A DNA stretch of 63,875 nucleotides, counting the filler. It is 5 parts of 5 records of this genome, joined end to end, with 100 filler letters (N's around TTAATTAATTAA, not from the genome) between each part and the next. Parts side by side here need not be neighbours in the genome. Positions count along the whole stretch, not along the records: positions 7,660 to 18,277 come from SRR20825006_1110; 4 more parts are not named here. The stretch is one strand, 5' to 3'. The translations under genes were made by a program, and so were the position numbers. Positions 4,035 through 37,269 of this stretch are shown piece by piece. The notes under the pieces were generated by a model. It made no database searches and was not told the origin of the DNA. It saw only the letters and a program-made list of their open reading frames with translations. How positions within the stretch are numbered: position 1 is the first letter of the stretch; every line of letters begins with the position of its first letter.

Positions 4035-7000
4035 ATGTCCTCGCAATATCCCCCCGTCGCGATTGTTGGCGCCAGCGCTCTCTTTCCTGGCTCCATTCAC
4101 AAGGGCAAGTTCTGGAAGAACATCCTCGAGGGTCATGACCTGTTGAGCGAAGTGCCCGAGACGCACTGGTTGCTCGACGATTACTACGACCCCGACCCAA
4201 CCACGCCAGACAAGACCTACGCGCAGCGAGGGGGATTCTTGCCTGTGACGGAGTTCTCGCCGATGGACTTTGGCGTCCCGCCAAACATCATCCCGGCCAC
4301 GGACACCGCGCAGCTGCTCGCGCTCAACGTCGCACAACGCGTCCTCGAGGATGCCGCCGGTGGCGACTTCTCCGAGATGGATCGCGACAAGATCAGCGTC
4401 GTGCTCGGCGTCGCGTCGGCCACGGAGCTGGTGGGCCACATGTCAGGTCGCCTCCAGCAACCTGTCTGGGAGCGCGCGCTGCGCAACATCGGCCTCCCCG
4501 AAGAGCAAGTGCAAGCGTTCAGCCGAGAGGTCGCCGCGAGCTACGTCGAGTGGCAGGAGAGCACCTTCCCCGGTTTGCTCGGGAACGTGGTCGCCGGTCG
4601 CATCGCGAACCGCCTCGACCTCGGCGGCACGAACTGTGTGGTCGATGCCGCGTGCGCGTCCTCGTTGGCAGCGCTCGAGATCGGCCTCAACGAGCTCTAC
4701 CTCGGTCAGTCGGATCTGGTGATCGGCGGCGGCGTCGATACGCTCAACGACATCCTGATGTTCATGTGCTTTAGCAAGACGACCGCGCTGTCGGTGTCTG
4801 GCGATTGCCGCCCCTTCTCGGATCAAGCCGACGGCACGATGCTCGGTGAGGGCATTGGCATGGTCGCGCTCAAGCGACTCGAAGATGCAGAGCGTGACGG
4901 TGACAAGATCTATGCAGTGATTCAGGGCCTCGGCAGCTCCTCTGACGGTCGCGCCAAGAGTATCTATGCGCCCGTGTCTGAAGGTCAGGCCAAGGCGTTG
5001 CGCCGTTGCTATGAGCGCGCGGGTTACGGCCCAGAGACTGTCGAGCTCGTCGAAGCGCACGGCACGGGCACCAAGGCTGGCGACGCTGCCGAGTTTGGCG
5101 GCCTCAAGATGATCTTCGAAGACGAGACGGACACCGATCAGAAGCAATGGTGCGCGCTCGGCTCGGTCAAATCACAGGTCGGTCACACCAAGGCCGCCGC
5201 TGGTTCGGCGGGCCTGTTCAAGGTCGCCATGGCGCTCCACCACCGCGTCATCCCGCCGACGATCAAGATCGACAAGCCAAACCCGCTCATCGATGTCGAC
5301 AACAGCCCCTTCTACCTGAACACGACCTCGCGCCCCTGGGTTCGCGGCTCGAAGCACCCTCGTCGCGCGTCGGTGAGTTCGTTCGGGTTTGGCGGCACCA
5401 ACTTCCACGTCGCGCTCGAAGAGTACAAGGGCGAGGGACGCCAGTGGCGTATACGCTCGCAGCCATGCGAGCTCTTTGCCTGGTCGGCTGATTCGGCGAG
5501 CGAGCTTCTGGCGAACGTGACCGAGGTGATGAACGACATCGATCACCACGATGACATGTTCGAGTTCTTCGCTCGTCAGTCGCAACAGAACGCTGCGTCG
5601 GGCAAGTCTTCGAGGCTCGCGGTCGTCGCGAACAACGCCGAGGATCTCAAGAAGAAGCTCAAGCTTGTCCACGCGCACCTCGAGCGCTCGCCAACGAGCA
5701 ACTACAGCACGCCCAACGGTATCCAGTACACGCACGGCACAGACGCGGGCAAGGTCGCCTTCCTCTTCCCTGGTCAGGGCAGCCAGTATGTGAACATGGG
5801 CAATCAGCTCGCCATCCACTTCGAGCGCGTGCTCGATGTCTGGGATCGCACCGCAGATATGACGTTCGATGAGAACGTCGCGCTTCACGACGTCGTCTTC
5901 CCGAGGACCTCGTGGAGCGAGGCCGAGACGCAGCGCCAGCGCGAGCAAATCACCGCCACCGAGTGGGCACAGCCCGCCATCGGCGCGGCGAGCCTCGGCG
6001 TTCGTACACTGCTCGACGCGATGGGCGTCCGCGCTGATGTGGTCGCAGGCCATAGCTTCGGCGAGCTCACAGCGCTCTACCACGCAGGCGTTTACTCGGA
6101 GGAAGACTTCCTTCGCATCGCGCGCAAGCGCGGCGAGTTGATGGCGGCTGCCTCGGATCTCGACGGCGCCATGACCGCGGTTGTTGCAGATGTCGACACG
6201 GTCGTCGCGCGCCTCGAAGAATGGGGCGTGGATGTCGTGATCGCCAATCACAACAGCCCATCTCAGGTCGTCCTCTCGGGCGCCACGAGCGCGATCGAAG
6301 AGGTCGAAGGGCACCTGGCAAACGCGGGGATGAAGTACAAGCGACTCAAGGTCGCGACCGCGTTCCACTCCCCATTGGTGAGTGATTCGAGCGCGCCGCT
6401 CAAGACATTCCTCGACGAGGTCGCGTTCTCCGCGCCAAAGCTCGATGTCTACGCCAACAGCACCGCAGACGTGTACCCTGAGGATGCAGACCAGATGCGT
6501 GGATTGCTCGCCGGGCAGGTCGCGCAACCCGTGCGCTTTGTCGAGCAGCTCCAGGCGATGTACGAGGCTGGCGTGCGCACCTTCATCGAGGTCGGTCCAG
6601 AGGCCGTCCTCTCGAACCTCGTGACGCGCACGCTCAAGGGCGATGACCTCAACGTCATCGCGACCGATCGTCGTGGCAAGCACAGCGTGGAGATGTTCAC
6701 GTTGGCGCTCGCGCAGATGTTCACCGCAGGTCTCGAGCTCGACTTCTCCGTCCTGTGGGATGGCTACAAGGAGGTCGACGATCCTCGCCAGCGCAAGGCA
6801 TCGCGTTTCTCCGTCGAACTCGGCGGCGCGAACTACAACAAGCCCTCGCCATACCGCGAGCCAACCGCAGAGGCGGTGGCGGCAGCAGCGAGCCTCAACG
6901 AGCCTCGCGTCGTCGAGAAGATCGTCGAGGTCGAGGTCGAAAAGATCGTCGAAGTGCCCGTGCCTGTGGCCAATGGACACGCACACGCGCCTTCACATGC

Positions 7001-7559
7001 ACCATCGCACGCACCTGCTCCGGCAGCGTCGGTGGACAGCAGCTGGCTCGACACATTCGAGCGGATGCAAGAAGAGACCGCGCGCGCTCAGGCCGAGTAT
7101 CAGCGCATGATGGCCGAGAGCCACACCGCGTTCCTCGACATGGCGCAGGCGACGCTCGCGAACCTGTCCGGTGTCGAGGCGCAGAAGCCTGTGGCCGCAG
7201 ATGATGTGGTCGGGAAGATGACCTTCCCGAGCTTTGCAGCACCGACCAACGGTCATCATATCAATGGCAACGGCGCGAGCAGCGCTCGCGCAGAAGCGGG
7301 CGCTTCGTTCGCACCCTCTTCTTACACAGCGCCTGCGCCAAAGCCCGCGCCAGCCATGGAAATGCGCGCTCCTGTGAGCACGCCTCCCGTGTCTGCGCCA
7401 AAGGTGAGCAAGCCTGCGGCTCCGGTCGCGAAGACGCCCGCGCCTGCTCCAACACCAACTCCTGTGGCACCGACGCCAAAGGCCGCTCCTGCATCGCAGG
7501 GAGTGGACTTGACCGCGGTGATGTTGTCAGTGGTCGCCGAGAAGACGGGTTATCCCGAG
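4035..7559 (+). CDS. pfaA: PUFA synthase PfaA-like iterative type I PKS (KS-MAT-linker-ACP), truncated at contig end
   Basis: KS motifs DAACASS, HGTGT, KSQVGHTK; AT motifs FPGQGSQ, GHSFG, AFHS; Pro/Ala linker; start of a PfaA-type ACP (VVAEKTGYPE). Confidence 0.92.
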
Positions 7560-7659
7560 NNNNNNNNNNNNNNNNNNNNNNNNNNNNNNNNNNNNNNNNN
7601 NNNTTAATTAATTAANNNNNNNNNNNNNNNNNNNNNNNNNNNNNNNNNNNNNNNNNNNN
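7560..7659. other. artificial contig spacer
   Basis: 44 N + TTAATTAATTAA (stops in all six frames) + 44 N. Confidence 0.99.
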
Positions 7660-7992
7660 ATTCGGCGTCGTGTTGTTGGCGGTGGTGTTATTTCCCGTCG
7701 TGGTGTTGTTGGTGCTGACGGGTGGACACATGCCGGTGACGGGGTTGACGGTGCCGCCGCCAGGACAGGTCGTGGCGTTGTTGCCCGAGGTCATGTTGTT
7801 GCCAGCCCCAGAGGGCTGGCAGACGCCCGTGATCGGGTTCTCGACCTCACCATCAGGGCAGCTGGTGGCAGCGTTGTTGTCTTCGGGGGTCACATCCTCG
7901 GAACACCCGCTCGCGGCAATAAGCGTCGCGGCGCAGAGAAACGCTCCGAGGGAGCGAAGGAATGTGGTCGGTCGATAAAAGTCGATATTCAT
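7660..7992 (-). CDS. Asn/Thr-rich lipoprotein, N-terminal fragment (3' truncated)
   Basis: Signal peptide ending AASGC, two CPxGxxxNPxTGxC motifs, NNTT low-complexity tract running into the spacer. Confidence 0.7.
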
Positions 7993-8207
7993 GGGCTCCT
8001 CGTAGCACAGAACCTGGCGTCATGATGGTCGCGGTTCGTGGGACGATGCGTTTTGGCCAATTCTCAGGACGACGCAGTATAGCGAAGATCCTCTGTAGAA
8101 TACAATATCCTACACCAGATCCACATAGTAGGTCTTCACCGGAACTTTACGGGTGCCAGAGGGAGATGTAAGGAGAGTGCCCAGGGGACGAGCCGAAGGA
8201 GTCGAAC

Positions 8208-8927
8208 ATGTCTCAATTCCCACTCTCAGAGACCATCCGCGCGGGCGAAGAAGAGCTGACCTCGGAGGAAGCGATCGCGATGCTCGAGTCGCGCATCTCG
8301 CCCGAGCGGCGCGCGCGCATCGCCGAGGTCGTCGCGCAGCGCACTTATTCGATCGTGACGGTGTGTGACAACCTGTATGACACGGGGAACATGGCCGCGG
8401 TGATGCGAAGCGCGGAGGCGATGGGGATCCAGGAGTTTCACGCGATCAACCTGCAGAGCAAGTTCAAGCGCTCGGCGCGGATCACGGCGGGCGCGGACAA
8501 GTGGCTCGACTTTCATATGTGGCGAAAGCGCGAGACGTGCGTGGAGCATTTGAAGGAGCGAGGGTACAGGATCGTCGCGACGCAGCTCTCGGAGGATTGC
8601 GTGGAGATCGGCGAGCTCGACTTCACGGAGGCGCCGACAGCGATCGTGTTTGGCAACGAGCGCGATGGCGTGAGCGAGGAGGTCCTCGAAGCGAGTGATG
8701 TGCGCTGTATTTTGCCGATGTTGGGGTTTGCCGAGAGCTACAACATCTCTGTGGCGGCGGCGTTGAGCTTCTACCACATCCGCCAGGATCGCATCGCGAG
8801 GCAGGGGTTTCACGGGGATCTGAGCGAGCGAGAGCGCCTTCGCCTGCTGGCCGATTACTACATGCGCAGCGTGGATCGGAGCGAGATCGTGCTCGAGAGC
8901 TTGCTCAAGCGGCACGCGACGACATAA
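8208..8927 (+). CDS. trmH: tRNA (guanosine-2'-O)-methyltransferase, TrmH/SpoU family
   Basis: DNLYDTGNMAAVMRSAEAMG, GADKW, IVFGNERDGVS, PMLGFAESYNISVAAA SPOUT motifs. Confidence 0.88.
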   Translation: MSQFPLSETIRAGEEELTSEEAIAMLESRISPERRARIAEVVAQRTYSIVTVCDNLYDTGNMAAVMRSAEAMGIQEFHAINLQSKFKRSARITAGADKWLDFHMWRKRETCVEHLKERGYRIVATQLSEDCVEIGELDFTEAPTAIVFGNERDGVSEEVLEASDVRCILPMLGFAESYNISVAAALSFYHIRQDRIARQGFHGDLSERERLRLLADYYMRSVDRSEIVLESLLKRHATT

Positions 8928-8964
8928 GAAGGAGCGAGCTATTCGTCCTGGGGGCACAACCTCC

Positions 8965-8993
8965 TTGACGGCTAAGGGGTCGATATGTATGGT
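8965..8993 (+). promoter_or_regulatory. sigma70 promoter of rplU-rpmA(-obgE)
   Basis: TTGACG-N17-TATGGT. Confidence 0.6.
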
Positions 8994-9261
8994 TCGTTGC
9001 CCTTCGAGGTGGCCCTGGTTTTCCCAAGGGACCATCAAGGTGACCAGCGACGAGCCCATTCCCACTTGTCCGGCCGCCGTCTCGAAAGAGGACGACATAG
9101 ATAAGGTAGGAAGCATACACGAAGCATCCCCTACCCGACCGACATCTTCTCCCGGCGCGCGGCCACGAAACGCCGCACCGCGACGAGGTCAGGAGCCCTC
9201 GATGAGAGGGGTCGAGCGGGAGTGAAAAGGTGATGCGAGAGAGATAAAGAGGAGTCCAAGA

Positions 9262-9576
9262 ATGCATGCAGTGATCAAGACGGGCGGTAAGCAGTACCGC
9301 GTCCAAGAAGGGGACGTGATCAAGATCGAGAAGCTCGCTGGCGTCGAAGCTGGCGGCGAGGTGGTCTTCGAGAACGTGCTCGCAGTGGGCGCGGGCGAAG
9401 ACATCAAGATCGGCGCACCGCTCGTCGAGGGCGCCACGGTCAAGGCGAGCGTGCTCGAGCAGGGCCGCAGCCGCAAGATCGTGGTCTTCAAGAAGAAGCG
9501 CCGCAAGGATTACCGCCGTAAGCGCGGTCACCGTCAGCACTTCACGCGCGTTCGCATCGAGAGCGTCGAGGCATAA
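9262..9576 (+). CDS. rplU: 50S ribosomal protein L21
   Basis: [14 protein letters not shown]...[23 protein letters not shown]. Confidence 0.98.
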
Positions 9577-9692
9577 ACCACCCGAGCAGTTGGTTAAGGA
9601 GGGTTGGCCCTCACCCCGCAAGCTCGTCAAGGTCGCCAGCAAGTCTTTGTTTTAGAAACAAGAGCGCGACTGATTGGATCAAGGAGAACGAC

Positions 9693-9965
9693 ATGGCACA
9701 CAAGAAAGGACAAGGCTCGACACGTAACGGCCGCGACTCCAACCCGCAGTACCGCGGCGTCAAGCGCTACGGTGGTCAGTGGGTGAACGCGGGCGGCATC
9801 ATCGTTCGCCAGGTGGGGAGCACCTTCCACGCGGGCGACAACGTCGGCACCGGCAAGGACTACACGCTCTTCTCGCTCGTCGACGGCACGGTCGAGTTCC
9901 GCACGCGTCGCGGCGGCCGCAAGACCGTTTCGGTCGTTCCTCACGTCGAGGCGGCAGCCGAGTGA
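9693..9965 (+). CDS. rpmA: 50S ribosomal protein L27
   Basis: [16 protein letters not shown]...GIIVRQ...[12 protein letters not shown]. Confidence 0.98.
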
Positions 9966-10040
9966 ATTCTGTGATGCGCCGGTGAGGTTGCTTTAAACGA
10001 GCAACGAAGTTGGCGCGTGATGGAATCGAGCAACGAATTT

Positions 10041-10107
10041 CAAATGGCGAGAGCTCCCCGTCCAGCGATGCATTCAGGTGCGTCACGGCGGAGACTCTCG
10101 CCATTTG
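10041..10107 (+). repeat. long imperfect stem-loop between rpmA and obgE
   Basis: CAAATGGCGAGAG (10041-53) pairs perfectly with CTCTCGCCATTTG (10095-107); inner stems CTCC/GGAG, CCGT/ACGG, GATGCA/TGCGTC; followed by TTTT. Confidence 0.8.
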
Positions 10108-10152
10108 TTTTGAGAGCGCCGCGCACGCGCGCTTTAAGGGAGGTGCCCCAAG

Positions 10153-11247
10153 ATGTTTGTCGATGAAGCCACGCTACATATTCAGGCCGGTCGAGGCGGG
10201 GATGGCATGGTCGCCTTCCGACGCGAGAAGTATGTGCCTCGAGGAGGCCCCGCGGGCGGAGATGGCGGCAAAGGCGGCGATGTCGTCTTCGTCGCGACGC
10301 ACAACGCGCACACGCTCGCAGCGTTTCGCCACAAGCGCAACATCAAGGCCGAGAGCGGGAGACCGGGCGGGCCGAACAACATGAGCGGTCGCAGCGGCAA
10401 GGACGAGATCGTGGAGGTCCCCACCGGGACGCTGCTGTTCGACACCGACACCGGCGAGCAAGTCGCGGACTTGACCTATGAGGGTCAGCGCTACATCGCG
10501 GCGCGAGGCGGGGATGGAGGAAGGGGCAACCAACACTTTGCCTCATCGCGCAACCGCGCGCCGAGGAAGGCCACGCCGGGGTATCCTGGCGAGCAGTGCT
10601 CGTTAAAGCTCGAGCTCAAGCTGATCGCTGATGTGGGGCTCGTGGGATATCCCTCGGTCGGGAAGTCAACGCTCGTGGCGGCGCTCTCGAACGCGCAGCC
10701 AAAGATCGCGGCCTACCCCTTCACGACGCTCACGCCAAACCTCGGCGTGGTGCGCTGGCACGACTATCAGGAGTTCGTGATCGCGGACATCCCTGGATTG
10801 ATCGAGGGCGCGCACGAGGGTCAGGGCTTGGGCATCCAGTTTCTGAAGCACGTCGAGCGCACCAATGTGTTGGTGCATGTGCTCGAGGTGACAGAGCAGC
10901 TCGAGGACAACCCGGACGGGCGCGATCCAATAAAGGACTACGAGGTTCTTTGCCACGAGCTCGAGACGTTCAACGCAGATCTACTCGAGAGGCCGCAGCT
11001 CGTCGCGCTGAACAAGGTCGACTTGCCACGCGTCCGGGAGCGCGCGGATGAAATCCGCGCGCACTTCGAGGGTCTGGGGATGGAGTGTTTCGAGATCTCT
11101 GCGGCGGGCCACATCGGCCTCGACGAGCTCAAGGAGCGGCTCGGGCAGTTGGTGCTCGGAGACAAGGTCGAGACCAACGGTGATGATGGGCTGGAGTGGT
11201 GGGAGCGCGAAGACGGCATTCCACCCAAGGTTGGCGAGGAGCAGTGA
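10153..11247 (+). CDS. obgE: GTPase ObgE/CgtA
   Basis: FRREKYVPRGGPAGGDGG, GLVGYPSVGKST, YPFTTL, DIPG, NKVD; follows rplU-rpmA. Confidence 0.97.
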   Translation: MFVDEATLHIQAGRGGDGMVAFRREKYVPRGGPAGGDGGKGGDVVFVATHNAHTLAAFRHKRNIKAESGRPGGPNNMSGRSGKDEIVEVPTGTLLFDTDTGEQVADLTYEGQRYIAARGGDGGRGNQHFASSRNRAPRKATPGYPGEQCSLKLELKLIADVGLVGYPSVGKSTLVAALSNAQPKIAAYPFTTLTPNLGVVRWHDYQEFVIADIPGLIEGAHEGQGLGIQFLKHVERTNVLVHVLEVTEQLEDNPDGRDPIKDYEVLCHELETFNADLLERPQLVALNKVDLPRVRERADEIRAHFEGLGMECFEISAAGHIGLDELKERLGQLVLGDKVETNGDDGLEWWEREDGIPPKVGEEQ

Positions 11248-11261
11248 TCAGAAAGAGGAGG

Positions 11262-11492
11262 TCACCCCTTCTCATCTTCTGATGGTTCGTCTTCGCCTTC
11301 ATCCTCTTCGGTCGTGGCGGCGTCCTCGTTCTGCGAGGACGCGTCAGCGGCGCGGCGCGCACGCTCTCGGCGTGCGCGCTTCTTTTTTGCCTCTTGCGCC
11401 TCGCGCTCCGCGGCGCGGCGTCCCGAGAAGAAGCCCATAAAGAAACCGATCATGATCATGACCGGGATATAGAAGATGTGCGCGGTGTTCAT
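11262..11492 (-). CDS. small membrane-anchored protein (N-terminal TM, basic helix, acidic tail)
   Basis: HIFYIPVMIMIGFFMGFFSG hydrophobic N-terminus; starts 7 bp after the ccmD-like stop. Confidence 0.65.
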   Translation of the reverse strand: MNTAHIFYIPVMIMIGFFMGFFSGRRAAEREAQEAKKKRARRERARRAADASSQNEDAATTEEDEGEDEPSEDEKG

Positions 11493-11498
11493 GAGAGG

Positions 11499-11777
11499 TC
11501 ACTCGGGCTTTTCGGGGAGCGCGTCGAAGTACTTGTCGAGGCGACCCTCGACCTCAGCGAGGTCAGCGATCACGGAAGCCTGCTTGCGGAGCACGAACGC
11601 GACGAACCCGAAGATCAGGACCCAGAGCGCGATATAGGAGATGATCACGAGGACGCCACCGTGGATGGTGGTTTCCTTGGCGGCGGCGGAGTTTTGCGCC
11701 AGCGCGATCGAGGGGAGCAAGCACAAGACAAGGCTTGTGACGAGCGAGGCTGGTAGTTTTGAAAGAAACCGAGGCAT
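11499..11777 (-). CDS. ccmD: CcmD-family heme export protein with N-terminal signal-like extension
   Basis: SYIALWVLIFGFVAFVLRKQ followed by a short coiled coil; directly downstream of ccmC. Confidence 0.65.
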   Translation of the reverse strand: MPRFLSKLPASLVTSLVLCLLPSIALAQNSAAAKETTIHGGVLVIISYIALWVLIFGFVAFVLRKQASVIADLAEVEGRLDKYFDALPEKPE

Positions 11778-11820
11778 CGTAAAACCTGCGACTTTGCGGA
11801 CTTGGAGTGAGAATAAGGCT

Positions 11821-12528
11821 TCAGGCGAACTCTTGAGCGATGGCCAGATCTTCGACTTCGAGGTGAAGCTCCTCGACGCGCAGCTCGAGCAGGCGCGTGC
11901 GAAGCAGCAACCAGTAGAGCGCGGTGAAGAGGAACAGGAAGGCGAGCATGGAGACGCCGAAGGCGGCGCCGATATCGGGGGAGAGCCCCGAGCCCCCTTC
12001 CCGCTCGACGACGGGGTGTTGCCCGCCCCAGTTCTGGATCGAGTAATGGATAAAGGGGATATCGACGCAGGCAAAGACGGCGAGCACGGCGCCGATTTGC
12101 CGGATGGTGTGTGTATCGGGGGAGAGCGATCGCAGCGCCACGTAACCGCCATAGAGCAGAAACAGCACGAAGGTGGCGGTGAGCTGCGGGTCCCAGACCC
12201 AGGGTTTGCCCCATGCCTTGTATCCCCACAGGGGGCCAGAGATCAGGACGAAGATGCAAAAGAGTATCCCCAGATCGGCGCCCGTCCTGGCGGCCACATC
12301 CCAGGCGCGTCGCGGTTTGAGCAAATAAACCAGCGAGGCGACCGAGCAGATGATAAAGCCCGCGTAGCAGGACATCGCCGAGGGGACATGTATGAAGAAG
12401 ATCTTTTGCGAGATCCCCTGCACGGCGTCGACGCCAGCGTAGAAGAAGATGGCGTACATCGCGCCCAGACAAAGGAGCGCGGTGACGGCAGCGAAGAAGG
12501 GGAAGACCCTGTCGATAAACTTGATCAT
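11821..12528 (-). CDS. ccmC: cytochrome c biogenesis heme exporter CcmC
   Basis: IFFIHVPSA, Trp-rich GPLWGYKAWGKPWVWDPQLT, IHYSIQNW...QHP. ATG at 12528 follows GAGGT. Confidence 0.9.
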   Translation of the reverse strand: MIKFIDRVFPFFAAVTALLCLGAMYAIFFYAGVDAVQGISQKIFFIHVPSAMSCYAGFIICSVASLVYLLKPRRAWDVAARTGADLGILFCIFVLISGPLWGYKAWGKPWVWDPQLTATFVLFLLYGGYVALRSLSPDTHTIRQIGAVLAVFACVDIPFIHYSIQNWGGQHPVVEREGGSGLSPDIGAAFGVSMLAFLFLFTALYWLLLRTRLLELRVEELHLEVEDLAIAQEFA

Positions 12529-12648
12529 CGTGTTGACCTCGCGGACAAAAGAACCTGTGGGGAGAGGCTCCAAGCCAGGATGCTTAACACGGGGAACGAG
12601 CGGAGACCAGATGGGATTCCGCACTTCGCATCTGAAGTGGGGGTGTGA

Positions 12649-12678
12649 TTGACGCTTGTTTCATGCGTCTTGTATAGT
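12649..12678 (+). promoter_or_regulatory. sigma70 promoter upstream of the TadA-like ATPase, overlapped by a short inverted repeat
   Basis: TTGACG-N18-TATAGT; GACGC (12651-55) / GCGTC (12665-69). Confidence 0.55.
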
Positions 12679-12783
12679 GAAAGTTAGCCGGAAGTGCCTG
12701 GAAAAAGCGGCTCGGCCAAACCGTGAGCATCAGCGTCACGGTGTGGGAAGGCCTCAAGGTTTCTCAAACAAGGGAAAGGTGCC

Positions 12784-13914
12784 ATGATCCCAAAGGAGAT
12801 CTTCGAACAATCGATCCGTCGATATTTCGAGCCGATCGTGCCTTATCTAGAGGATGACTCGGTCTCCGAGATCATGATCAACGGGCCCAATGATATTTGG
12901 GTCGAGATCAGCGGAAAGCTCCACAAGACCGATGCGTCCTTTCCTGTGGAAGACGACTTGGTCAGCGGCGCGAAGAACATCGCGCAATATGTGGGCAAGA
13001 CGCTCAACGAGCTCAACCCGAGGATGGACGCTCGCCTGCCAGACGGCAGCCGCGTGCACGTCGTGTTGCCGCCCTGCGCGCGCAACGGAGTCACGATCGC
13101 GATTCGCCGCTTCGGCAAGTTCTCGCTGACGATGGAGAAGTTGATGGGCTACGGCTCGATCACGGCCGTCGGCGCGAAGTTCATCAACATCTGTGTCCAG
13201 ATGGAGCGCAACCTGATCGTCGCGGGCGGCACGGGCTCGGGGAAGACCTCGTTGCTCAACTGCATCTCGACGCTGATCAACCCGGACGAGCGCATCCTGG
13301 TGATCGAGGACTCGAGCGAGCTGCAGCTGCAGCAGCCACACGTGGTGATGCTCGAGGCCAGAGGGCCAGACTCGAAGGGGCGCGGCAGGGTCGAGATCGG
13401 CGACCTGTTCCACTCGGCCATGAGGTTGCGCCCTGACCGTATCGTGATCGGCGAGATCCGTGGCGGCGAGGCGCTCTCGCTGCTCCAGGCGATGACCTCG
13501 GGTCATGGCGGGAGTATGTCGACGACGCACGCGACTTATCCCGATGATACGTTGCGACGTCTGGAGACGATGGCGATGATGTCCGAGGTCGAGATGCCGC
13601 TGATGGCGCTTCGCTCTCAGGTCGCCGCCGCCATCCAGATGATCGTGCAGACGTCGCGTTTTAACGACGGCTCTCGCAAGATCACGCACATCGCAGAATG
13701 CCTCGGGCTCGCAGAGAACGGCGAGTACAAGATCTACCCGATCTTCGAATTCCGCCACCGGGGCTATGGCCCGGAGGGCAAGGTCCTGGGGCAACTCGAA
13801 CCTTGCGGCAACGTCCCGACGTTCTTCGACGCTGTGCTCGAGCGTGGCCTGGAGATCGACGAATCCTGGTTCATGCCCCAGCAGCAAGAGCGCCAACCGC
13901 GAAGACGCCGCTAA
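12784..13914 (+). CDS. cpaF: CpaF/TadA-family secretion ATPase
   Basis: SEIMING, DARLPDGSRV, Walker A GGTGSGKT, IEDSSEL, RLRPDRIVIGEIRG, MTSGHGGSMSTTHA. Confidence 0.92.
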   Translation: MIPKEIFEQSIRRYFEPIVPYLEDDSVSEIMINGPNDIWVEISGKLHKTDASFPVEDDLVSGAKNIAQYVGKTLNELNPRMDARLPDGSRVHVVLPPCARNGVTIAIRRFGKFSLTMEKLMGYGSITAVGAKFINICVQMERNLIVAGGTGSGKTSLLNCISTLINPDERILVIEDSSELQLQQPHVVMLEARGPDSKGRGRVEIGDLFHSAMRLRPDRIVIGEIRGGEALSLLQAMTSGHGGSMSTTHATYPDDTLRRLETMAMMSEVEMPLMALRSQVAAAIQMIVQTSRFNDGSRKITHIAECLGLAENGEYKIYPIFEFRHRGYGPEGKVLGQLEPCGNVPTFFDAVLERGLEIDESWFMPQQQERQPRRRR

Positions 13915-13987
13915 GCCTATGGTTTCGCGCTCGCTGGCGAGCGATAACAGCTCGCCCCATTCGCACCTCATGAGGTGGTGACACACC

Positions 13988-16111
13988 ATGTCCGACGATC
14001 GTTTCAAACAAGCACGACGCAGCCTGATGAATCAACAGCAGCGTCAACGCGGTCCTGATCCTCACCAGCAGCAGCAATCCCCTGGTGGGATGGCAGACAG
14101 CGAAGACGCCACAGCGTTGGTCGACATCAACCAGCTACGCAATGGGCCCCCACAGACGCCACCCCCCACCCCTCATCGAGGCGGCGGTCATGGCGGTCCG
14201 GGAGGACCTCCCGGTGGTCATGGTGGTCACGGCGGCCATGGTGGCGGTTACGGCGGTGGTCCATCCTATCCTCCAGCTCAACAGGGAGGCGCCAACTACG
14301 GAGAAGATCCCGAGGAAGCGACCCAGATGGTCGACATCAACAGCTTCCGCAATGGCCCTCCATCGACGCCGGGTGGCGCCCCTCCCCCCACACCTCAGGG
14401 CGGTGGTGGTGGCAACTTCGGCTCACAGCCTCAGTTTGGCGCCGAGCCCGCCGGAGGCAGCAACAGCTCGCTCGTGATCGGTGGCGGCGCAGCGAGCGCC
14501 GAGGAGAGCACGCAGTTTGTCGACATCAACAACCTCGGCGGACCGGGACCAGGACCAGGTCCTGGACCTGGACCTGCGTCATCTGCGGGCCCTGTCGATC
14601 ATGGCGGCAGCTATGAAGGCAGCACGCAGTTTGTCGACCTCAACCAGCTCGCCGCCGGGAACGTCGGGCAAACGCCAGGGATCACCACGCCGGATCAGTC
14701 CACGCCGCAGCAGGACGCGCTCCTCCAGCAGTCGTACCAGTATGGCCACGAGAGCATCCAGCAGTATGGCGACTACACGCTGATCTTCGCGCGCAACCAG
14801 GCAGGCCAGGAGGTCGTCCTCAAGCGCATCTGGGAGGATCACCCCGACACGATGCCCGAGCGCCTGCGCATCAAGCTCTCGGAGCTCGGTCAGGTCTCTC
14901 ACCCGAGCCTCGCGCGCATGAACGGCATGTTCGCCTCGCACTCGGGTTGCTGGGTCGAGCTCGAGCGTCCTTATGGCATGCGCCTGACGCACATCATGCA
15001 GCAAGGCGTCCTCACGCCAGACAAGGTCCTGGAGTGGGCGCCCGCGGTGTTCAACGCGCTCAAGGCCGTGCACAAGAGCAACCACGTCTACAGCAACCTG
15101 ACGAGCGATGCTGTGTGGTTTGACGCTCAGACCGGCGAGACAAAGCTCGAGCCGTTCGACGTCCTCTCGTTCGAGGATCGTGGCAACCTCGGTCCGTTCG
15201 GAGCCCCCGAACTCCACCGAGGCAACCCCGTCCCATCCTCGGACATCTTCTCGTTCGGCATCCTCATCATCAACGCGTTGACGGGCGCGCCAGATCCTGG
15301 TCAGACCGCGAACATCGATAAGAAGAAGCTGCAGAAAGCGCTCGCTTCTCTCGTCGAGTTCGAGCCCAAGAAGCGAGGTAAGCCGGAAGCGGCGCTGCGC
15401 GCTCTGGGCTTTAAAGGCGCCATCGATGACGAGGACAAGTTCGATCGCCGCATCATCTTCCCCGTCGTCGCGCTGGCAGCCATCCTGCTCGTGAGCGTGG
15501 GCGTGTGGACACAGATGTCTGGCAAGAAAGAGGTCGGCATCCCACCACAGGTGAATATCCCCGAGGTCCCAGAGGGACTCGAGACCAAGGCGAACGCACC
15601 TGGCGAGCTCCAGAACGACGAGCGACTCGCCGTCATCTCGAGCTACATCTACTCGCCGCCCGCCAAGAAGCCCTCCTCGACCGTCGAGAAGGAGACGCTG
15701 ACTGACGAGCAGGTCGATGAGATCTTTGACGGGATCGAGAAGTCTCTCGAAAACGCCAAGAAGTACAAAGACAAAGATAAGGATTACAGATCCGCTTTGG
15801 AGGGTTTTGCCCGTGTAGTCCGAGCCAATGGTGGCACTCTCGGCGAGAAGGAGTTGGCGATGCAGAAGAAGCTCTTCGAAGACGAAGGGCTTCAGAAGTG
15901 GCGCTCTGAACAACTCCAACGCATCGAGAAGCGCCTGGTCGAGGAGAAGCAGTTCAAGGCAGCCGCGATCCCTTACCGCAACTTCGTGTTGCTGGATCCC
16001 AACGCCAACGCGCTCGGTTTCTTCGAAACCAACGCCGATGCCGAGATCCTCACCGTGAAACGTTCGGGCGCAGATGCAAAAGAAGAGTCCAACGAAGAAG
16101 AAGAGGAGTAA
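13988..16111 (+). CDS. single-pass membrane Ser/Thr pseudokinase with Pro/Gly-rich N-terminus and extracytoplasmic helical domain
   Basis: Kinase-fold motifs VLKR, HPSLARM, GAPE, SDIFSFG, but catalytic loop reads YSNLTSDAV and the DFG position reads PFD; TM IIFPVVALAAILLVSVGVW. Confidence 0.75.
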   Translation: MSDDRFKQARRSLMNQQQRQRGPDPHQQQQSPGGMADSEDATALVDINQLRNGPPQTPPPTPHRGGGHGGPGGPPGGHGGHGGHGGGYGGGPSYPPAQQGGANYGEDPEEATQMVDINSFRNGPPSTPGGAPPPTPQGGGGGNFGSQPQFGAEPAGGSNSSLVIGGGAASAEESTQFVDINNLGGPGPGPGPGPGPASSAGPVDHGGSYEGSTQFVDLNQLAAGNVGQTPGITTPDQSTPQQDALLQQSYQYGHESIQQYGDYTLIFARNQAGQEVVLKRIWEDHPDTMPERLRIKLSELGQVSHPSLARMNGMFASHSGCWVELERPYGMRLTHIMQQGVLTPDKVLEWAPAVFNALKAVHKSNHVYSNLTSDAVWFDAQTGETKLEPFDVLSFEDRGNLGPFGAPELHRGNPVPSSDIFSFGILIINALTGAPDPGQTANIDKKKLQKALASLVEFEPKKRGKPEAALRALGFKGAIDDEDKFDRRIIFPVVALAAILLVSVGVWTQMSGKKEVGIPPQVNIPEVPEGLETKANAPGELQNDERLAVISSYIYSPPAKKPSSTVEKETLTDEQVDEIFDGIEKSLENAKKYKDKDKDYRSALEGFARVVRANGGTLGEKELAMQKKLFEDEGLQKWRSEQLQRIEKRLVEEKQFKAAAIPYRNFVLLDPNANALGFFETNADAEILTVKRSGADAKEESNEEEEE
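14102..14650 (+). repeat. four dispersed protein repeats E-x-[AS]-T-x-x-V-D-[IL]-N
   Basis: EDATALVDIN (14102), EEATQMVDIN (14312), EESTQFVDIN (14501), EGSTQFVDLN (14615), separated by Gly/Pro spacers. Confidence 0.9.
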
Positions 16112-16114
16112 GCC

Positions 16115-17050
16115 GTGCCTTTGACAACCTCCCCCCGCCCCCTCCACACGCTCGCCATGGTCTTGCTCGCCAGCGCCGCCCTGAGCGCGTGTGGTGGTCA
16201 GCAAAAAGCCGCCGGGCCACCGCCAGATTTCAAGTTCGAGATCGACGTGCGCGTGAGCCTCGACAGCCAGAAGGACAAGGGGGTCTCCGGGATGCCGGTG
16301 CTCCTCGATGGCAAGACTATCGGTTACACCGATCGCGAAGGGAAGTTCCGCGCCTTGCTCACGGACAAGCCAAAGACCGAGGTCACGCTCGCCATTGGCA
16401 AGAACCCCGCGTACAAGTTCGTCCCCAACGAGGAGTACGAAAAGACCGTCCAACTCTCGCTCAAGTACAACAAGGAGCGCACGGGCGTCATCGCAGAGCC
16501 CGTGCAGCTCTTCACCTCGGTCGCCTCGGCCGAGGTCGAGTACCTCGTGTGGGTTTCGGCCGACTGTGACAAGGAGCTCGAGCCGGTCAAGTGCGTCGGC
16601 ATCCCGGTCAAGATGGGCGACAAGGTCGTGGGCACCACAGACACCCAGGGTCGCGCTCACTTTGTCCACGTGGGCACCCCGAACCAAACACTCTCCGTGA
16701 TGCTCGATACGAGCACGCCTGATCTCGAGGGCAACTCCCGCAACATCGAGCCTGCCTCACCGACCTTCGAGGTCGAGCTCGCGAAAGAATCGCAGGTCTA
16801 CAACATCCGCGAGACGTTCACCGAGATCGAGAGCGAAGACAGCAAGAAGAAGACAAAGCGCAGCAAGCGCAAGTCCTCGCGTCGCGCGGCCAAGAAGTCT
16901 CCCCGCAAGAAGTCATCGAGCAAGAAGTCCACGGGCAGCAAGAGCACCAAGAAGACGTCGAGCAAGAAGGTCTCGAGCAAGAAGACAACCCCAAAGAAGA
17001 CCGAGCCCAAATCGTCCGGTTCCAAAGAGGACCCGATTTCGCTCTTCTGA
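16115..17050 (+). CDS. lipoprotein with two beta-rich repeats and a Lys/Ser-rich tail
   Basis: Lipobox LSAC; GMPVLLDGKTIGYTDREG and GIPVKMGDKVVGTTDTQG; polybasic C-terminus; starts 3 bp after the pseudokinase stop. Confidence 0.75.
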   Translation: MPLTTSPRPLHTLAMVLLASAALSACGGQQKAAGPPPDFKFEIDVRVSLDSQKDKGVSGMPVLLDGKTIGYTDREGKFRALLTDKPKTEVTLAIGKNPAYKFVPNEEYEKTVQLSLKYNKERTGVIAEPVQLFTSVASAEVEYLVWVSADCDKELEPVKCVGIPVKMGDKVVGTTDTQGRAHFVHVGTPNQTLSVMLDTSTPDLEGNSRNIEPASPTFEVELAKESQVYNIRETFTEIESEDSKKKTKRSKRKSSRRAAKKSPRKKSSSKKSTGSKSTKKTSSKKVSSKKTTPKKTEPKSSGSKEDPISLF

Positions 17051-17083
17051 ACCGGCGACCACCGTCGCCACGAGAAATTTAAT

Positions 17084-17133
17084 GAGGTGGGCATGAACGA
17101 CAACGGTCAGCCGTTGTCGTTCATGCCCACCTC
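17084..17133. repeat. perfect 23-bp inverted repeat with 4-nt loop
   Basis: GAGGTGGGCATGAACGACAACGG-TCAG-CCGTTGTCGTTCATGCCCACCTC. Confidence 0.95.
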
Positions 17134-17159
17134 GATCCGTTTTTGGAGTCTCGATTTTG

Positions 17160-18203
17160 ATGGATTCGCAGAACATAACCAGGAGACTCGTCGATCGCTT
17201 CGATCGCGAGGTCAACTACCTGCGCATCTCACTCACAGAGCGCTGCAACTTTCGCTGCGTCTACTGTATGCCTGCGCAAGGAGATCCGTTCTCCTCGAAC
17301 CCCGAGCTCCTCGACTGGGACGAGATCACGCGCGCGGTCGCTGTGTTCGCAGCGCGCGGTGTGAAGAAGATCCGGCTCACTGGAGGTGAGCCGCTGGTCC
17401 GCGCTGATGTTCCCGAGCTCGTCGCCAAGCTCAAGGCGCTCGATGGCATCGAACACGTGGCGCTCACGAGCAATGGCTTCCTCCTGCCTCGCTACGCAGA
17501 ACCTCTGGCAGAAGCAGGGCTCGACAGCCTGAACCTGAGCATCGACAGCCTCGACCCGAAGCGTTTTCGCGAGATCACGCGCCACGGCACACTGGAGCGC
17601 GTCCTCGAAGGGATGGCGGCCACAAAAAAAGCAGGCGTCACAAACATCAAGCTCAACGCGGTGGTCGTGCGAGGTCTCAATGATGACGAGGTCGAAGATC
17701 TCGTGCGGTTCGCCGCCAGCCAGGATGTGATCCTGCGCTTTATCGAGGTGATGCCCATCGGTCAGGATACCGTCTGGGGAAAGAATGGCCGAGATGCCTG
17801 TGTGAGCGCCAGAGAGCTGCGCGAGCGCCTCGGGAAGAGCTGGGACATGTCCGCAGACCGCACGCGCTATGGCGCTGGTCCTGCCCGCTACTGGCGCTTG
17901 CTCGGTGAAGGGCTGCCGAGCGACGGCGCGACCGTCGGCATCATCAGCGCCGTGACCGAATGCTTCTGCGAAAACTGCAACCGCCTGCGCATGACCGCCA
18001 CGGGCGGCCTGCGCGCGTGTCTGGCGGATGACCACGAAATCGACCTGCGCGAGATCTTGCGCTCTCCGCTCTCTCACGCCGACCAGGCCCATCTCCTCTC
18101 GAGCGCCATAGACAAGTCACTCGGGGACAAGAAGGAGCGCCACAGCTTCGACCTCGAGGCTGGAGGCGTGACCTTCAAGTCGATGAACGCCATCGGTGGC
18201 TAG
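17160..18203 (+). CDS. moaA: GTP 3',8-cyclase (molybdenum cofactor biosynthesis)
   Basis: YLRISLTERCNFRCVYCMP, KIRLTGGEPL, C-terminal CxxCNRLR...C and MNAIGG terminus. Confidence 0.96.
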   Translation: MDSQNITRRLVDRFDREVNYLRISLTERCNFRCVYCMPAQGDPFSSNPELLDWDEITRAVAVFAARGVKKIRLTGGEPLVRADVPELVAKLKALDGIEHVALTSNGFLLPRYAEPLAEAGLDSLNLSIDSLDPKRFREITRHGTLERVLEGMAATKKAGVTNIKLNAVVVRGLNDDEVEDLVRFAASQDVILRFIEVMPIGQDTVWGKNGRDACVSARELRERLGKSWDMSADRTRYGAGPARYWRLLGEGLPSDGATVGIISAVTECFCENCNRLRMTATGGLRACLADDHEIDLREILRSPLSHADQAHLLSSAIDKSLGDKKERHSFDLEAGGVTFKSMNAIGG

Positions 18204-18277
18204 CGCGCAGCCTTCCGGAACGCCGTCTCCACAGATAGACAACCCTCCCAGACACAAAAAACATGAGTCACCCCGAA

Positions 18278-18377
18278 NNNNNNNNNNNNNNNNNNNNNNN
18301 NNNNNNNNNNNNNNNNNNNNNTTAATTAATTAANNNNNNNNNNNNNNNNNNNNNNNNNNNNNNNNNNNNNNNNNNNN
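18278..18377. other. artificial contig spacer
   Basis: N44-TTAATTAATTAA-N44. Confidence 0.99.
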
Positions 18378-35429: not shown

Positions 35430-35529
35430 NNNNNNNNNNNNNNNNNNNNNNNNNNNNNNNNNNNNNNNNNNNNTTAATTAATTAANNNNNNNNNNNNNNN
35501 NNNNNNNNNNNNNNNNNNNNNNNNNNNNN
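35430..35529. other. artificial contig spacer
   Basis: N44-TTAATTAATTAA-N44. Confidence 0.99.
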
Positions 35530-35559
35530 TGTCGCTCTATCCTGCTGAGCTACGGGGCC
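35530..35559 (-). tRNA. 5' fragment of a tRNA, probably tRNA-Arg; anticodon lost at contig edge
   Basis: Reverse complement GGCCCCG-TA-GCTC-AGCAGGATA-GAGC-GACA is an acceptor 5' strand plus D-arm typical of tRNA-Arg; TTGACG upstream at 35600-35605. Confidence 0.8.
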
Positions 35560-35715
35560 CCATAAACAGCGCTTTTCCTGTAACCCCAACCGGCGCGCCC
35601 GTCAACTGTGCTAAGGACATGTTGGCAAAACACGCAGCAAATGGCTAATTTCATTATTCGTCAGGCGCATTACCGAAAATTAAGGTTTCTGCTCTTTGAT
35701 GTCGTATGAAGATCT

Positions 35716-37269
35716 TTGGGGGTCTATCAGGAAATTGCGTTGAGTTTTCGTAGACTTGTTGCACCGGTTTTTGTTGCTGTCGCGGTTAGCATCGCGGCAC
35801 TTGTTGCGCTTGCCATCTTTGCAGCGCGCCAACAGGACGCGGCTGCGCTCGCAGCGGAAAAGCAGGTGATACAGCAGGAAATGCGCACCATCCATGGTGG
35901 GCTTGCGGTACTCGCGGAGGATAACGCCTGGTGGGACGCTGCTGTCGAAAATATTATCTTTGAGGAAAATATCGACTGGATCGACAGCACACTTGGCGAA
36001 TCCGTCATCGGCATCAGCCAGATCCAGGGTGTTTTTATCGTTCGGCGAGACGGCACCATGGCATACGGCAACTTTGTTGCCGCCCTGCCCGCCCCGCACA
36101 CTTTCCTTGATGCAGGTTTTGCGGAGCTCGCAAAAAGCATGGAAATCCCAAAGGAGCATCTACCCAGCAGCGCATCTGGCTTCCTGGAAATAGGTGGGGA
36201 CCTGATTGCCTTTGGCGCCAGCATGGTGCAAGCGGGTGAAGTAAAGTCGCTACCACCCATCCCCGATGAGAAGCGTGCTCTGATCATCTTTGTCTCGCTT
36301 GTAAGCGCAGAAGACATTGAGCGGATAGGGCAAGACAATGCAATAAAAGGGCTTCGGTTCGCGACCACCCCCATTGAGGGCGATAACACCATACCGGTGC
36401 TTTCCTTGGGAGGTGACTCTATTGGTCACTTGTGCTGGCGGCCTTCTGAGCCTGGCAGCGAAATGCTGCGTTACATGGTGCTGCCCGCCAGCATGCTTCT
36501 GGTCATCGTGATTATTGCGCTCGGACGGTTTTTACGCCAAGCCAACCGTGTGCTTGAAGAACTGGCCCGCGCCAACAAGGCCAAATCCGCTTTCCTCGCG
36601 TCCACAAGCCATGAGATCCGCACACCGCTCAATTCCATCATCGGTTTTACCGAGCTGATATCGCTTGAGCTATACGGCAAGGTTGAGGGTGAAAAGAACA
36701 AAGAGTATTTGCAACTGATCCGCCAAAGTGGCGAACACCTGCTTTCTATCATCAATGATATCCTTGATATCTCCAAACTGGAGGCAGACCGCTTTGAGAT
36801 ATATGCCGAAAAGGTGGAGCCCCGCACGGTGATTGCATCCGCCCACAAGCTGGTGTCTGCATCGGCGATGGAACGCGGTGTGAGGGTCACTACAGACTGT
36901 TTGCCGGCCGAAATCCTGTCGGATGAGCGCATCATGCGGCAGGTGCTTATTAACCTCCTGTCCAACGCCATCAAATTCACCGAGCCAGGCGGCAGCGTCA
37001 CGGTCAAGGGCTTGAGCCGGGGCCGCTTTTACGACATTACCATCACTGACACCGGCATAGGTATGAGCGAGGCCCAGATAGAAACAGCGCTATCGCTGTT
37101 TGGTCAGGTCGAAGGAGAGCTCTCCCGTCGGCACTCCGGCACAGGTCTTGGCCTGCCACTTGTCACGCGCTTTATGGAACTGCTGAACGGTCAGTTCGAT
37201 ATCTCATCCAGCCCCGGTGAAGGCACAACCGTCACCGCACGGTTCCCGCTCTATCGTGAGGAAGACTAA
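35716..37269 (+). CDS. sensor histidine kinase with periplasmic CHASE4-like domain (start may be TTG 35740)
   Basis: Two TMs, DNAWWD, H-box SHEIRTPLN, NLLSNAIKFT, DTGIGM, GTGLGL. Confidence 0.9.
   Translation: MGVYQEIALSFRRLVAPVFVAVAVSIAALVALAIFAARQQDAAALAAEKQVIQQEMRTIHGGLAVLAEDNAWWDAAVENIIFEENIDWIDSTLGESVIGISQIQGVFIVRRDGTMAYGNFVAALPAPHTFLDAGFAELAKSMEIPKEHLPSSASGFLEIGGDLIAFGASMVQAGEVKSLPPIPDEKRALIIFVSLVSAEDIERIGQDNAIKGLRFATTPIEGDNTIPVLSLGGDSIGHLCWRPSEPGSEMLRYMVLPASMLLVIVIIALGRFLRQANRVLEELARANKAKSAFLASTSHEIRTPLNSIIGFTELISLELYGKVEGEKNKEYLQLIRQSGEHLLSIINDILDISKLEADRFEIYAEKVEPRTVIASAHKLVSASAMERGVRVTTDCLPAEILSDERIMRQVLINLLSNAIKFTEPGGSVTVKGLSRGRFYDITITDTGIGMSEAQIETALSLFGQVEGELSRRHSGTGLGLPLVTRFMELLNGQFDISSSPGEGTTVTARFPLYREED

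Follow-up and report, generated by a model that had tools for sequence, protein, structure and literature searches.

The Kil machine of Myxococcus xanthus, a Tad-like apparatus for contact-dependent killing (Seef et al. 2021, PMC8460266; PMC12075869), and the Tad pili are the described systems closest to a three-gene locus of a marine predatory bacterium of the Bradymonadales that is analysed here. The locus, referred to below as the trio, lies in a stretch of DNA of 63,875 nucleotides (the window), on the 10.6-kb piece at positions 7660-18277 (SRR20825006_1110), and it encodes a short CpaF/TadA-family ATPase, a predicted single-pass inner-membrane pseudokinase and a predicted lipoprotein.

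The available part of PMC8460266 describes one CpaF-type ATPase for the Kil machine (KilF, which is FHA-fused) together with several FHA proteins; it states that neither the signal that sets off assembly when prey is touched nor the task of its many FHA proteins is known. The accessible portion of a later Kil paper (PMC12075869, Nat Commun 2025) mentions neither a kinase nor FHA. Within the available part of supplement 2 of PMC8460266, Bradymonas sediminis is represented only by DN745_00680-00700, a peptidase and a TadE-like gene. For Tad pili, a single bifunctional motor is taken to drive the machine, and how it changes direction is an open question (PMC12019362, as far as that text is accessible; PMC11300603; 2026 preprints). 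The same accessible sections of PMC12019362 define a three-helix bundle, an N-terminal domain (NTD) and a catalytic domain (CAD) as the minimum architecture of CpaF, with class III being FHA-fused, and report that the three-helix bundle is necessary for CpaF expression. In the predator Bdellovibrio bacteriovorus, according to the accessible part of a preprint, the Tad system is dispersed, has FHA and TPR neighbours and is accompanied by an isolated third tadA paralogue without an assigned function (bioRxiv 10.64898/2026.07.08.737194).

A preliminary description of the locus, made from the sequence, had called the ATPase an orphan and had proposed that the trio forms a phosphothreonine-controlled scaffold for a Tad-like machine. 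The observation itself is confirmed by our analysis and the interpretation, as a whole, is partly supported. The combination of a short CpaF paralogue, a pseudokinase and a lipoprotein was not found described in the full-text literature, a coverage outside which most subscription journals fall.

The Trio and Its Link to FHA-Type Tad Clusters

All three open reading frames (ORFs) are on the + strand. Gene 1 (12784-13914, ATG start) encodes the short ATPase of 376 amino acids, gene 2 (13988-16111, ATG start) the pseudokinase of 707 amino acids, and gene 3 (16115-17050, GTG start) the lipoprotein of 311 amino acids, with gaps of 73 bp between genes 1 and 2 and 3 bp between genes 2 and 3, exactly the co-oriented and tightly spaced arrangement originally reported. 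No tadB, tadC, pilin or secretin gene adjoins the trio, as had been stated, over the ~5 kb upstream and 1.2 kb downstream within which neighbours can be judged, a scope limited to a few kb because the window is a five-piece composite and the trio piece is 10.6 kb long. Neither tadB nor tadC occurs on this piece or in the 15-kb locus L014 of a same-species genome; in relatives the nearest such pair is 15-19 kb distant. The label of an orphan is not supported. The ATPase seems isolated because the contig piece is only 10.6 kb long, and it proved to be a conserved second ATPase of FHA-type Tad clusters which, in the Bradymonadales, is displaced from the cluster by 14.6-19 kb.

This conclusion is based in part on a maximum-likelihood tree of 51 ATPases from the fetched loci, from which a duplicate row (L002, the same gene as L004) was dropped and which carries a long-branch warning for L001, L045, L004 and L029. 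The 23 short ATPases form one clade with 100/100 support, comprising 13 sequences from Bradymonadales, six from Polyangia-type Myxococcota and four from Planctomycetota, while ten FHA-fused ATPases of the same loci lie across a 100/100 branch from it. The placement of the ATPase in a CpaF tree, which had been suggested as a check, therefore sets it apart from the FHA-fused type.

A search of 201 genomes sampled from the phylum produced matches in 67 of them at E 1e-95 or better. Applying a rule of our own for the short type (47-57% identity and a match starting at query residues 1-5), short-type matches occur in ~39 genomes beyond the 18 Bradymonadales-type ones, and 23 non-Bradymonadales genomes of this sample have a contig on which a long CpaF and the short type are separated by 4-7 kb. 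Both ATPases were present in 11 of 12 such distant loci that were fetched and, unlike the Bradymonadales trio, clade members in other Myxococcota have tadB and tadC next to them. In Polyangiaceae, the gene order is RcpC, secretin, FHA-CpaF, TadB/TadC, FHA-like, TPR, short ATPase and a single-pass membrane protein that has no Pfam match. In Planctomycetota it is short ATPase, two Flp-like ORFs, prepilin peptidase, single-pass kinase with TPR repeats, RcpC and FHA-CpaF; the kinase carries HRD/DFG motifs, with HLD in one of the two. In both Myxococcota and Planctomycetota the short clade accompanies clusters that contain an FHA-fused CpaF, and the link to a Kil-like Tad system that had been proposed holds in three lineages, where the ATPase clade lies in or beside FHA-type Tad clusters.

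Two further features of these distant loci were recorded. The small planctomycetal ORFs between the short ATPase and prepilin peptidase genes (65-92 amino acids; L028:7370-7903 and L029:8125-8626) resemble Flp-type pilins in having a hydrophobic segment that comes after the sequence G-[AG]-x-[ST]-[LI]-E-[WK]. In Polyangiaceae (L049:9722-12389) the short ATPase and its membrane partner are followed not by the Ig-like lipoprotein but by a different lipoprotein-like ORF, with a CxxCH-type motif, and then by a PSCyt2/PSCyt3/PSD2 protein.

Synteny in the Bradymonadales

Close relatives of the ATPase are in Lujinxingia, Persicimonas and Bradymonadaceae records. Among 48 Bradymonadales genomes, 39 carry a short-ATPase orthologue (65-98% identity) and 37 an FHA-type paralogue (40-46% identity); both types are present in 34 and neither, at E 1e-60, in six. 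The two ATPases are encoded on one contig in 16 genomes, in 15 of which they are 14.6-19 kb apart. The trio stays together across the order, and the co-conservation that had been predicted for it is upheld.

The genome of the window species is represented by a metagenome-assembled genome (MAG) of the same species, G042, in which the trio locus L014 encodes an ATPase of 98% identity and shows the gene order of the window, namely SpoU, Obg, a small ORF, ccmC on the opposite strand, the trio and moaA. A longer view is provided by genome G045, where ccmC (opposite strand) and the trio are followed by moaA, ccmE, ccmF, two ORFs, ccmA and ccmB, and beyond ccmB, on the opposite strand, by two unknowns, a TPR protein, an FHA protein, TadC, TadB, FHA-CpaF, secretin and RcpC. 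In G042 a Kil-like cluster with FHA-fused CpaF, TadB, TadC, secretin, RcpC, a further FHA protein and a TPR protein occupies its own 15.6-kb contig (C94), and the trio contig (C137) stops right after ccmB, which is the point where the Kil-like cluster starts in G045. G042 has one TadB/TadC pair, alongside eight matches to T2SSE, 30 to FHA and 85 to the kinase domain at E 1e-20 or better. A Tad platform and FHA proteins are, therefore, present in the species, as the proposed link requires.

Relative to G045, the window species carries ~12 kb extra between moaA and ccmE (L014:12571-15126; L071, corresponding to G042:C137:27000-46225), an insert that holds an 851-residue protein with Ig and LTD domains, cytochrome c proteins, a 1189-residue unknown protein and a LysR regulator. 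A further FHA-rich locus in the same MAG (G042:C245:6700-9500) contains a 708-residue frame with an FHA match and a weak T2SSE match beside a 448-residue frame with two FHA matches; from its domain matches, the 708-residue frame could be another FHA-fused ATPase.

A Stripped-Down CpaF ATPase

The product of gene 1 matches PF00437 (T2SSE) at 173 bits (cut-off 24.9; E 8e-51) and its closest solved structure is Caulobacter crescentus CpaF (E 8e-87), in line with the initial assignment as a short CpaF/TadA ATPase. Close relatives are annotated as CpaF family proteins. The product falls below the cut-offs of all NCBIfam equivalogs, scoring 269 bits with TIGR03819 (TadA family conjugal-transfer-associated ATPase; cut-off 373) and 45 bits with TIGR01420 (PilT-type retraction ATPases; cut-off 319). 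Residues 15-358 align to CpaF residues 148-491 of 501, only 14 residues precede the part that aligns at CpaF residue 148, and an in-frame stop precedes the first start codon. Since the alignment covers CpaF 148-491 only, the protein has neither the disordered region nor the three-helix bundle and consists of the NTD and catalytic domain only, which is less than the minimum CpaF architecture given in the available part of PMC12019362. Pfam detects no FHA domain in the 376 residues, so that the protein is not of the KilF type (class III CpaF).

Three catalytic elements are recognisable, all on the + strand: Walker A (GGTGSGKTS) at 13225-13251, the Asp box/Walker B at 13294-13326 and 13438-13473, and the His box at 13495-13533. 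Across an alignment of 18 ATPases, short and long, the stretches GGTGSGKTS, IEDSSELQ, GEIRGGEA and TSGHGGSMSTTHA show little or no variation. Judged by these motifs, gene 1 encodes a catalytically intact CpaF paralogue.

A Membrane Pseudokinase with Threonine Motifs

The preliminary description of gene 2, as a single-pass pseudokinase with Thr repeats, was borne out by an alignment of ten orthologues at 31-40% identity, apart from the same-species copy in L014 at 94%. The N-terminal peptide MSDDRFKQARRSL (13988-14026, + strand) has 11 of 13 positions invariant: M1 to R10 and L13 are identical in all ten orthologues, and R11 and S12 are conserved in at least 90%. We consider it a candidate docking peptide on account of this conservation. 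An alternative gene call begins 110 residues downstream (597 amino acids); the longer form of 707 amino acids is favoured because the N-terminus is conserved.

There follows a disordered cytoplasmic region (14102-14644, + strand), defined by alignment and motif counts, which contains four copies of [DE]-x-[AS]-T-x-[LMF]-V-D-[IL]-N, at 14102-14131, 14312-14341, 14501-14530 and 14615-14644, around T42, T112, T175 and T213, respectively. The first three of these Thr residues are invariant among the ten orthologues and T213 is conserved in at least 90%. The orthologous motifs take the form acidic-acidic-[AS]-T-[QA]-[FML]-[VF]-[DNE], with two to four distinct copies in each of the ten, and the pattern T-x-[FML]-[VF] is conserved within low-complexity sequence; none of 2000 shuffles of the region reached the observed counts. 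FHA domains dock on phospho-Thr with a hydrophobic residue at +3, and acidic residues upstream with hydrophobic residues at +3 and +5 agree with the preferences of bacterial Hanks kinases for their sites and of FHA domains. Because the gene 2 motifs fit these preferences, they are putative kinase targets and FHA docking sites. The contigs of RNA libraries (see below) show in-frame indels (+9, -3 and +12 nucleotides) at 14212, 14402 and 14542, which fall in the spacers and leave the Thr motifs untouched.

The next segment (14735-15397, + strand), identified by its Pfam match and the orthologue alignment, is a degenerate Hanks-type kinase domain. Pkinase matches it weakly (40 bits, 3.5e-10, residues 269-438) and language-model features place the protein with Ser/Thr kinase clusters (0.97). 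The HRD motif is replaced by Y-S-N (15083-15118, + strand), with Y-[SA]-N at that position in orthologues (T or G in two), and DFG by P-F-D (15146-15184, + strand), with E388, P389, F390 and D391 invariant. The VAIK Lys (K279) is the sole kinase signature residue that is kept; the HRD Asp, the Mg-binding Asn (Ala at this position), the DFG Asp and the Gly-rich loop (GxGxxG) are absent in all ten orthologues. None of the ten therefore has the make-up of an active Hanks-type Ser/Thr kinase, and gene 2 is classified as a pseudokinase.

A single transmembrane helix at residues 489-507 (15452-15508, + strand), a hydrophobic stretch that aligns in all orthologues, leads to a periplasmic region (15578-16111, + strand) in which residues ~573-681 are predicted to form a bundle of five to six, possibly TPR-like helices, modelled with confidence values (pLDDT) of ~75-90. 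This domain has no Pfam match and no Foldseek match in the PDB at E 0.001 or better, the top Foldseek rows being TPR proteins at E 0.3 or worse. A word-based wide search with the pseudokinase retrieved nine proteins only.

In other Myxococcota the gene behind the short ATPase encodes a protein that crosses the membrane once and carries both a cytoplasmic domain and a disordered arm. The arms bear acidic-Thr motifs such as D-E-S-T-R-F or A-E-S-T-R-I-L-D, and the proteins have one helix and a periplasmic helical hairpin. Their cytoplasmic domain is degenerate and FHA-like (hhalign probability 79%, E 1.5e-5), and in one lineage (L064) it is instead kinase-like, contains HRD and D-F-D and is 23% identical to the pseudokinase of the window. 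A degenerate phospho-signalling domain combined with Thr motifs on a membrane anchor appears, from these sequences, to be the recurring theme.

A Lipoprotein with Two Ig-Like Domains

Gene 3 encodes a signal peptide followed by the lipobox L-S-A-C at residues 23-26 (16181-16192, + strand), in accordance with the earlier assignment. The lipobox residue Cys26 is aligned in nine of ten orthologues, as expected of bacterial lipoproteins, and distant homologues also show a Cys after a hydrophobic leader. The structural model (pLDDT 73.6 overall and above 85 inside the domains) predicts two Ig-like beta-sandwich domains within residues 39-237, each holding a D-G-x-x-V-G-x-T-D-x-x-G stretch, and a Cys pair (C151 and C160) is conserved. 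According to alignment and model, a basic disordered tail rich in Lys, Arg and Ser begins at 16844, and alignment defines a conserved C-terminal I-x-L-[FW] at 17033-17047 (both + strand).

Foldseek returned generic domains of Gram-positive pilins, CnaB-like proteins and usher Ig-like domains at TM-scores of 0.2-0.33, and these model-based matches provide no functional assignment. A language-model search led to unnamed Myxococcota clusters (215-226 amino acids) and to CarboxypepD_reg-like clusters. With a hidden Markov model (HMM) of the family, homologues were detected one to two genes behind the short ATPase in seven of 12 distant Myxococcota loci, one of the matches being weak.

Boundaries and Expression

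The single promoter that had been proposed corresponds to a sigma-70-like candidate, TTGACG-18-TATAGT, at 12649-12678 (+ strand, 10 of 12 consensus matches). It is the sole promoter-like site in 12400-17400, and shuffled sequences yield 0.6 such sites, so that by itself the site is weak evidence for a promoter of the trio. Of the strong hairpins that were described, the one that closes the unit stood up: a perfect 23-bp stem at 17084-17133, followed by a T-rich stretch on the + strand, has a minimum free energy of -65.4 kcal/mol (z = -8.5 against shuffles). For the small hairpin that lies between genes 1 and 2, z is -1.7 against shuffles, which is not significant.

Part of the trio stretch is present in 19 of 22 listed sequencing runs, from 12 studies, 14 of these runs being on record as RNA. 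RNA-library contig sets of four runs from four studies cover ~12.66-16.99 kb, bridging the junction of genes 1 and 2 in two runs (X1 and X3) and that of genes 2 and 3 in three (X1, X2 and X3). The contigs of X6 and X2 start at 12662 and 12697, near the promoter-like site, which provides a weak hint of its use. Gaps occur at 17088-17400 in all four runs and at 12300-12641 in two, and such contigs indicate neither absence of transcription nor transcript ends. Two kinds of result had been named as speaking against the proposal, genes that are not co-conserved or co-transcribed and a genome without a Tad platform or FHA proteins; the trio is co-conserved, RNA-library contigs cross both gene junctions, and the platform and FHA proteins are encoded in the same-species genome.

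Proposed Function and Alternative Explanations

We lean towards the view, as somewhat the most probable one, that the trio is the Bradymonadales form of a conserved accessory unit, made up of a second motor, a scaffold and a lipoprotein, of FHA-type (Kil-like) Tad machines. Active Hanks kinases of the cell would phosphorylate the Thr motifs of gene 2, and both the FHA domains of the main motor and the FHA proteins of the Kil-like cluster would recognise the resulting phospho-Thr sites. The FHA domains of the long ATPases keep, in alignment, the G-R, S-x-x-H and N-G residues which we take to be the phospho-Thr-binding signature, and it is the pattern of the Thr motifs together with these intact residues that suggests phospho-Thr control of the machine. 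The pseudokinase may serve as a phospho-coded scaffold that sets where and when the machine assembles, connected to the envelope, in this view, by its periplasmic domain and the lipoprotein. As for the short ATPase, it may use the single TadB/TadC platform too and work there as a counter-motor that retracts or resets, in the way PilT opposes PilB; this is proposed because it lacks both an FHA domain and the three-helix bundle and because the genome has one TadB/TadC pair.

An extension of this scheme, which we offer tentatively and with limited expectation that it will prove correct, is that Kil-type Tad systems of predatory and related bacteria are two-motor machines in which the short CpaF counter-motor, dedicated to retraction or reset, competes with the FHA-gated main motor for the single TadB/TadC platform, and that the phospho-Thr scaffold on the dead kinase, linked to the envelope via its periplasmic domain and the lipoprotein, picks the motor at prey contact. 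If the proposals are true, a conserved minimal motor and a scaffold with FHA-binding motifs constitute concrete candidate genes for the questions of motor reversal and of the Kil signal, and these candidates span culturable Bradymonadales as well as many other Myxococcota and Planctomycetota. The product of gene 1 is, moreover, a naturally occurring CpaF-type ATPase without the three-helix bundle reported to be indispensable.

Several results weigh against an accessory unit of this kind. The gene 3 family HMM finds no homologue in six Polyangiaceae loci, nor in five of the 12 other distant loci, the periplasmic-domain HMM of gene 2 matches nothing outside the Bradymonadales orthologues, and the model-based TPR-like call for that domain is weak. 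Pfam sees no FHA in the FHA-like domains of the distant middle-gene counterparts. Among the 48 Bradymonadales genomes, five have the short type only and three the long type only, to which little weight is given since they are MAGs, and in G048 the short and long ATPases are 2.8 Mb apart. The neighbouring ccmC is also kept in the Bradymonadales, as is moaA on contigs that extend to it, so that the linkage there could be partly plain conserved gene order. A contig that extends over two genes does not establish that they share one transcript, and DNA may be present in an RNA library. Finally, the tables of the M. xanthus Kil genes (eLife supplement) list no second CpaF, and hence the model system may work without one.

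Among the alternatives, one that we judge improbable sees in the short ATPase a redundant or alternative motor for extending the same pilus, used when FHA gating is bypassed, the products of genes 2 and 3 being merely co-regulated envelope proteins that form no scaffold. It is favoured by the complete set of catalytic motifs, by the retention of the helix equivalent to CpaF alpha5, which contacts the platform according to the available part of PMC12019362, and by the occurrence of just one TadB/TadC pair. However, the order of ATPase, Thr-motif single-pass protein and lipoprotein is kept across the order Bradymonadales and, in an altered form, across the phylum, the gap between genes 2 and 3 is 3 bp, and a simple duplicate is not expected to shed a three-helix bundle which the same source, as far as it is available, reports to be needed for CpaF expression.

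It also seems to us unlikely that the trio is a self-contained trans-envelope unit working without a Tad platform, in which a hexameric ATPase anchored by the pseudokinase passes force or a signal to the lipoprotein, for example in effector release or envelope remodelling, and is only co-regulated with the Kil-like machine. The products would span cytoplasm, inner membrane and periplasm, the Bradymonadales trio has no adjoining TadB/TadC, and the nearly invariant N-terminal peptide of gene 2 could be a dock for the ATPase. To our knowledge, however, PilT/VirB11-type ATPases all act on polytopic platform or channel proteins, whereas the pseudokinase has a single helix, and in most other lineages the ATPase is encoded inside a Tad cluster.

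The neighbourhood of ccmC upstream, and of moaA and then ccmE, ccmF, ccmA and ccmB downstream, might suggest participation in cytochrome c maturation or general housekeeping, a reading that we consider very improbable and have rejected on the gene context in other lineages: outside the Bradymonadales the ATPase clade and the lipoprotein family occur in Tad clusters rather than ccm clusters, and ccmC is on the opposite strand. A reading of the trio as an anti-phage defence module, in which an ATPase would be paired with a kinase-like sensor, has least to commend it and was rejected because no family-level PADLOC match was obtained, the weak matches of the kinase-like domain to MADS mad6, MkoA and PD-T4-6 and of the P-loop to mad8 and PtuA amounting to 35 bits against a cut-off of 460 (NCBIfam) or 18-39 bits (PADLOC) over generic kinase and P-loop parts only, in genes that are vertically conserved in core synteny.

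Other Features of the Window

The pieces of the window are separated by filler runs (44 N, 12 bases, 44 N) at 7560-7659, 18278-18377, 35430-35529 and 55724-55823. Scans of the window revealed no Rfam families and no tRNAs. The piece at 35530-55529 is 100% identical to genome G001, that at 18378-35429 matches G001 only at 68-81% over short stretches, and the trio piece is of Bradymonadales origin, so that the window combines DNA that is unrelated. G001 shows no DNA match to the trio piece and no orthologue of the short ATPase (its best match, at 45%, is a canonical CpaF with TadB/C), and the pseudokinase is absent from 41 genomes around G001, where one weak kinase match was obtained. A polyketide-synthase-like ORF with KS, KS C-terminal extension and AT domains extends over 4035-7607 and is cut by the N-run at 7560, and at 41332-43524, on the G001-identical piece, a BlaR1-type M56 peptidase is joined to a long region of ankyrin repeats.

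Comparison with Known Systems

The short ATPase resembles C. crescentus CpaF (PDB 8rjf, 8rkd and 9e24; PMC11300603 and the available part of PMC12019362) in that its NTD and catalytic domain align over their full length and its catalytic motifs are kept. It differs in lacking the 79-residue disordered region and the three-helix bundle, in belonging to a separate clade and in falling below the class I minimum of the latter source. In domain composition (NTD and ATPase domain), in size (~350-380 amino acids) and as a second motor beside a longer one, it is also similar to the retraction ATPases PilT and PilU of type IVa pili, which likewise do without the additional N-terminal domains found in the extension motor; it does not belong to their family (TIGR01420, see above) but sits among CpaF-like proteins in the tree, and a role in retraction is suggested only by analogy.

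For gene 2, a parallel is offered by MviN (MurJ) of Mycobacterium tuberculosis, a protein with a membrane-anchored pseudokinase domain whose phospho-Thr recruits the FHA protein FhaA. The trio would serve another machine, MviN being a cell-wall precursor flippase, its pseudokinase has another topology, and MviN has no ATPase or lipoprotein partner. The Thr-phosphorylation pathway of the type VI secretion system of Pseudomonas aeruginosa, with the kinase PpkA and Fha1 (PMC8460266, in its available part), follows the logic proposed for the trio, with a single-pass kinase or pseudokinase that has a periplasmic domain, phospho-Thr sites (predicted for the trio) and an FHA reader by which assembly of an envelope machine is gated. 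In contrast to PpkA and Fha1, the kinase fold of the trio is dead and itself bears the Thr motifs, the proposed FHA reader is fused to the motor ATPase, and homology is limited to domains.

Among predators, tadA3 of B. bacteriovorus, likened here by its description in the accessible part of the preprint (bioRxiv 10.64898/2026.07.08.737194), is likewise an unlinked extra TadA-type ATPase. The nearest relationship is to M. xanthus Kil (Seef et al. 2021, PMC8460266; PMC12075869). KilF is marked by an FHA domain whereas the short ATPase of the window has none, and the Kil gene tables in the available part of PMC8460266 contain no short CpaF paralogue, pseudokinase or lipoprotein of this kind, yet the same-species genome G042 possesses the Kil-type core, as far as the two sources are available for comparison, with RcpC/CpaB, secretin, FHA-CpaF, TadB, TadC, an FHA protein and a TPR protein.

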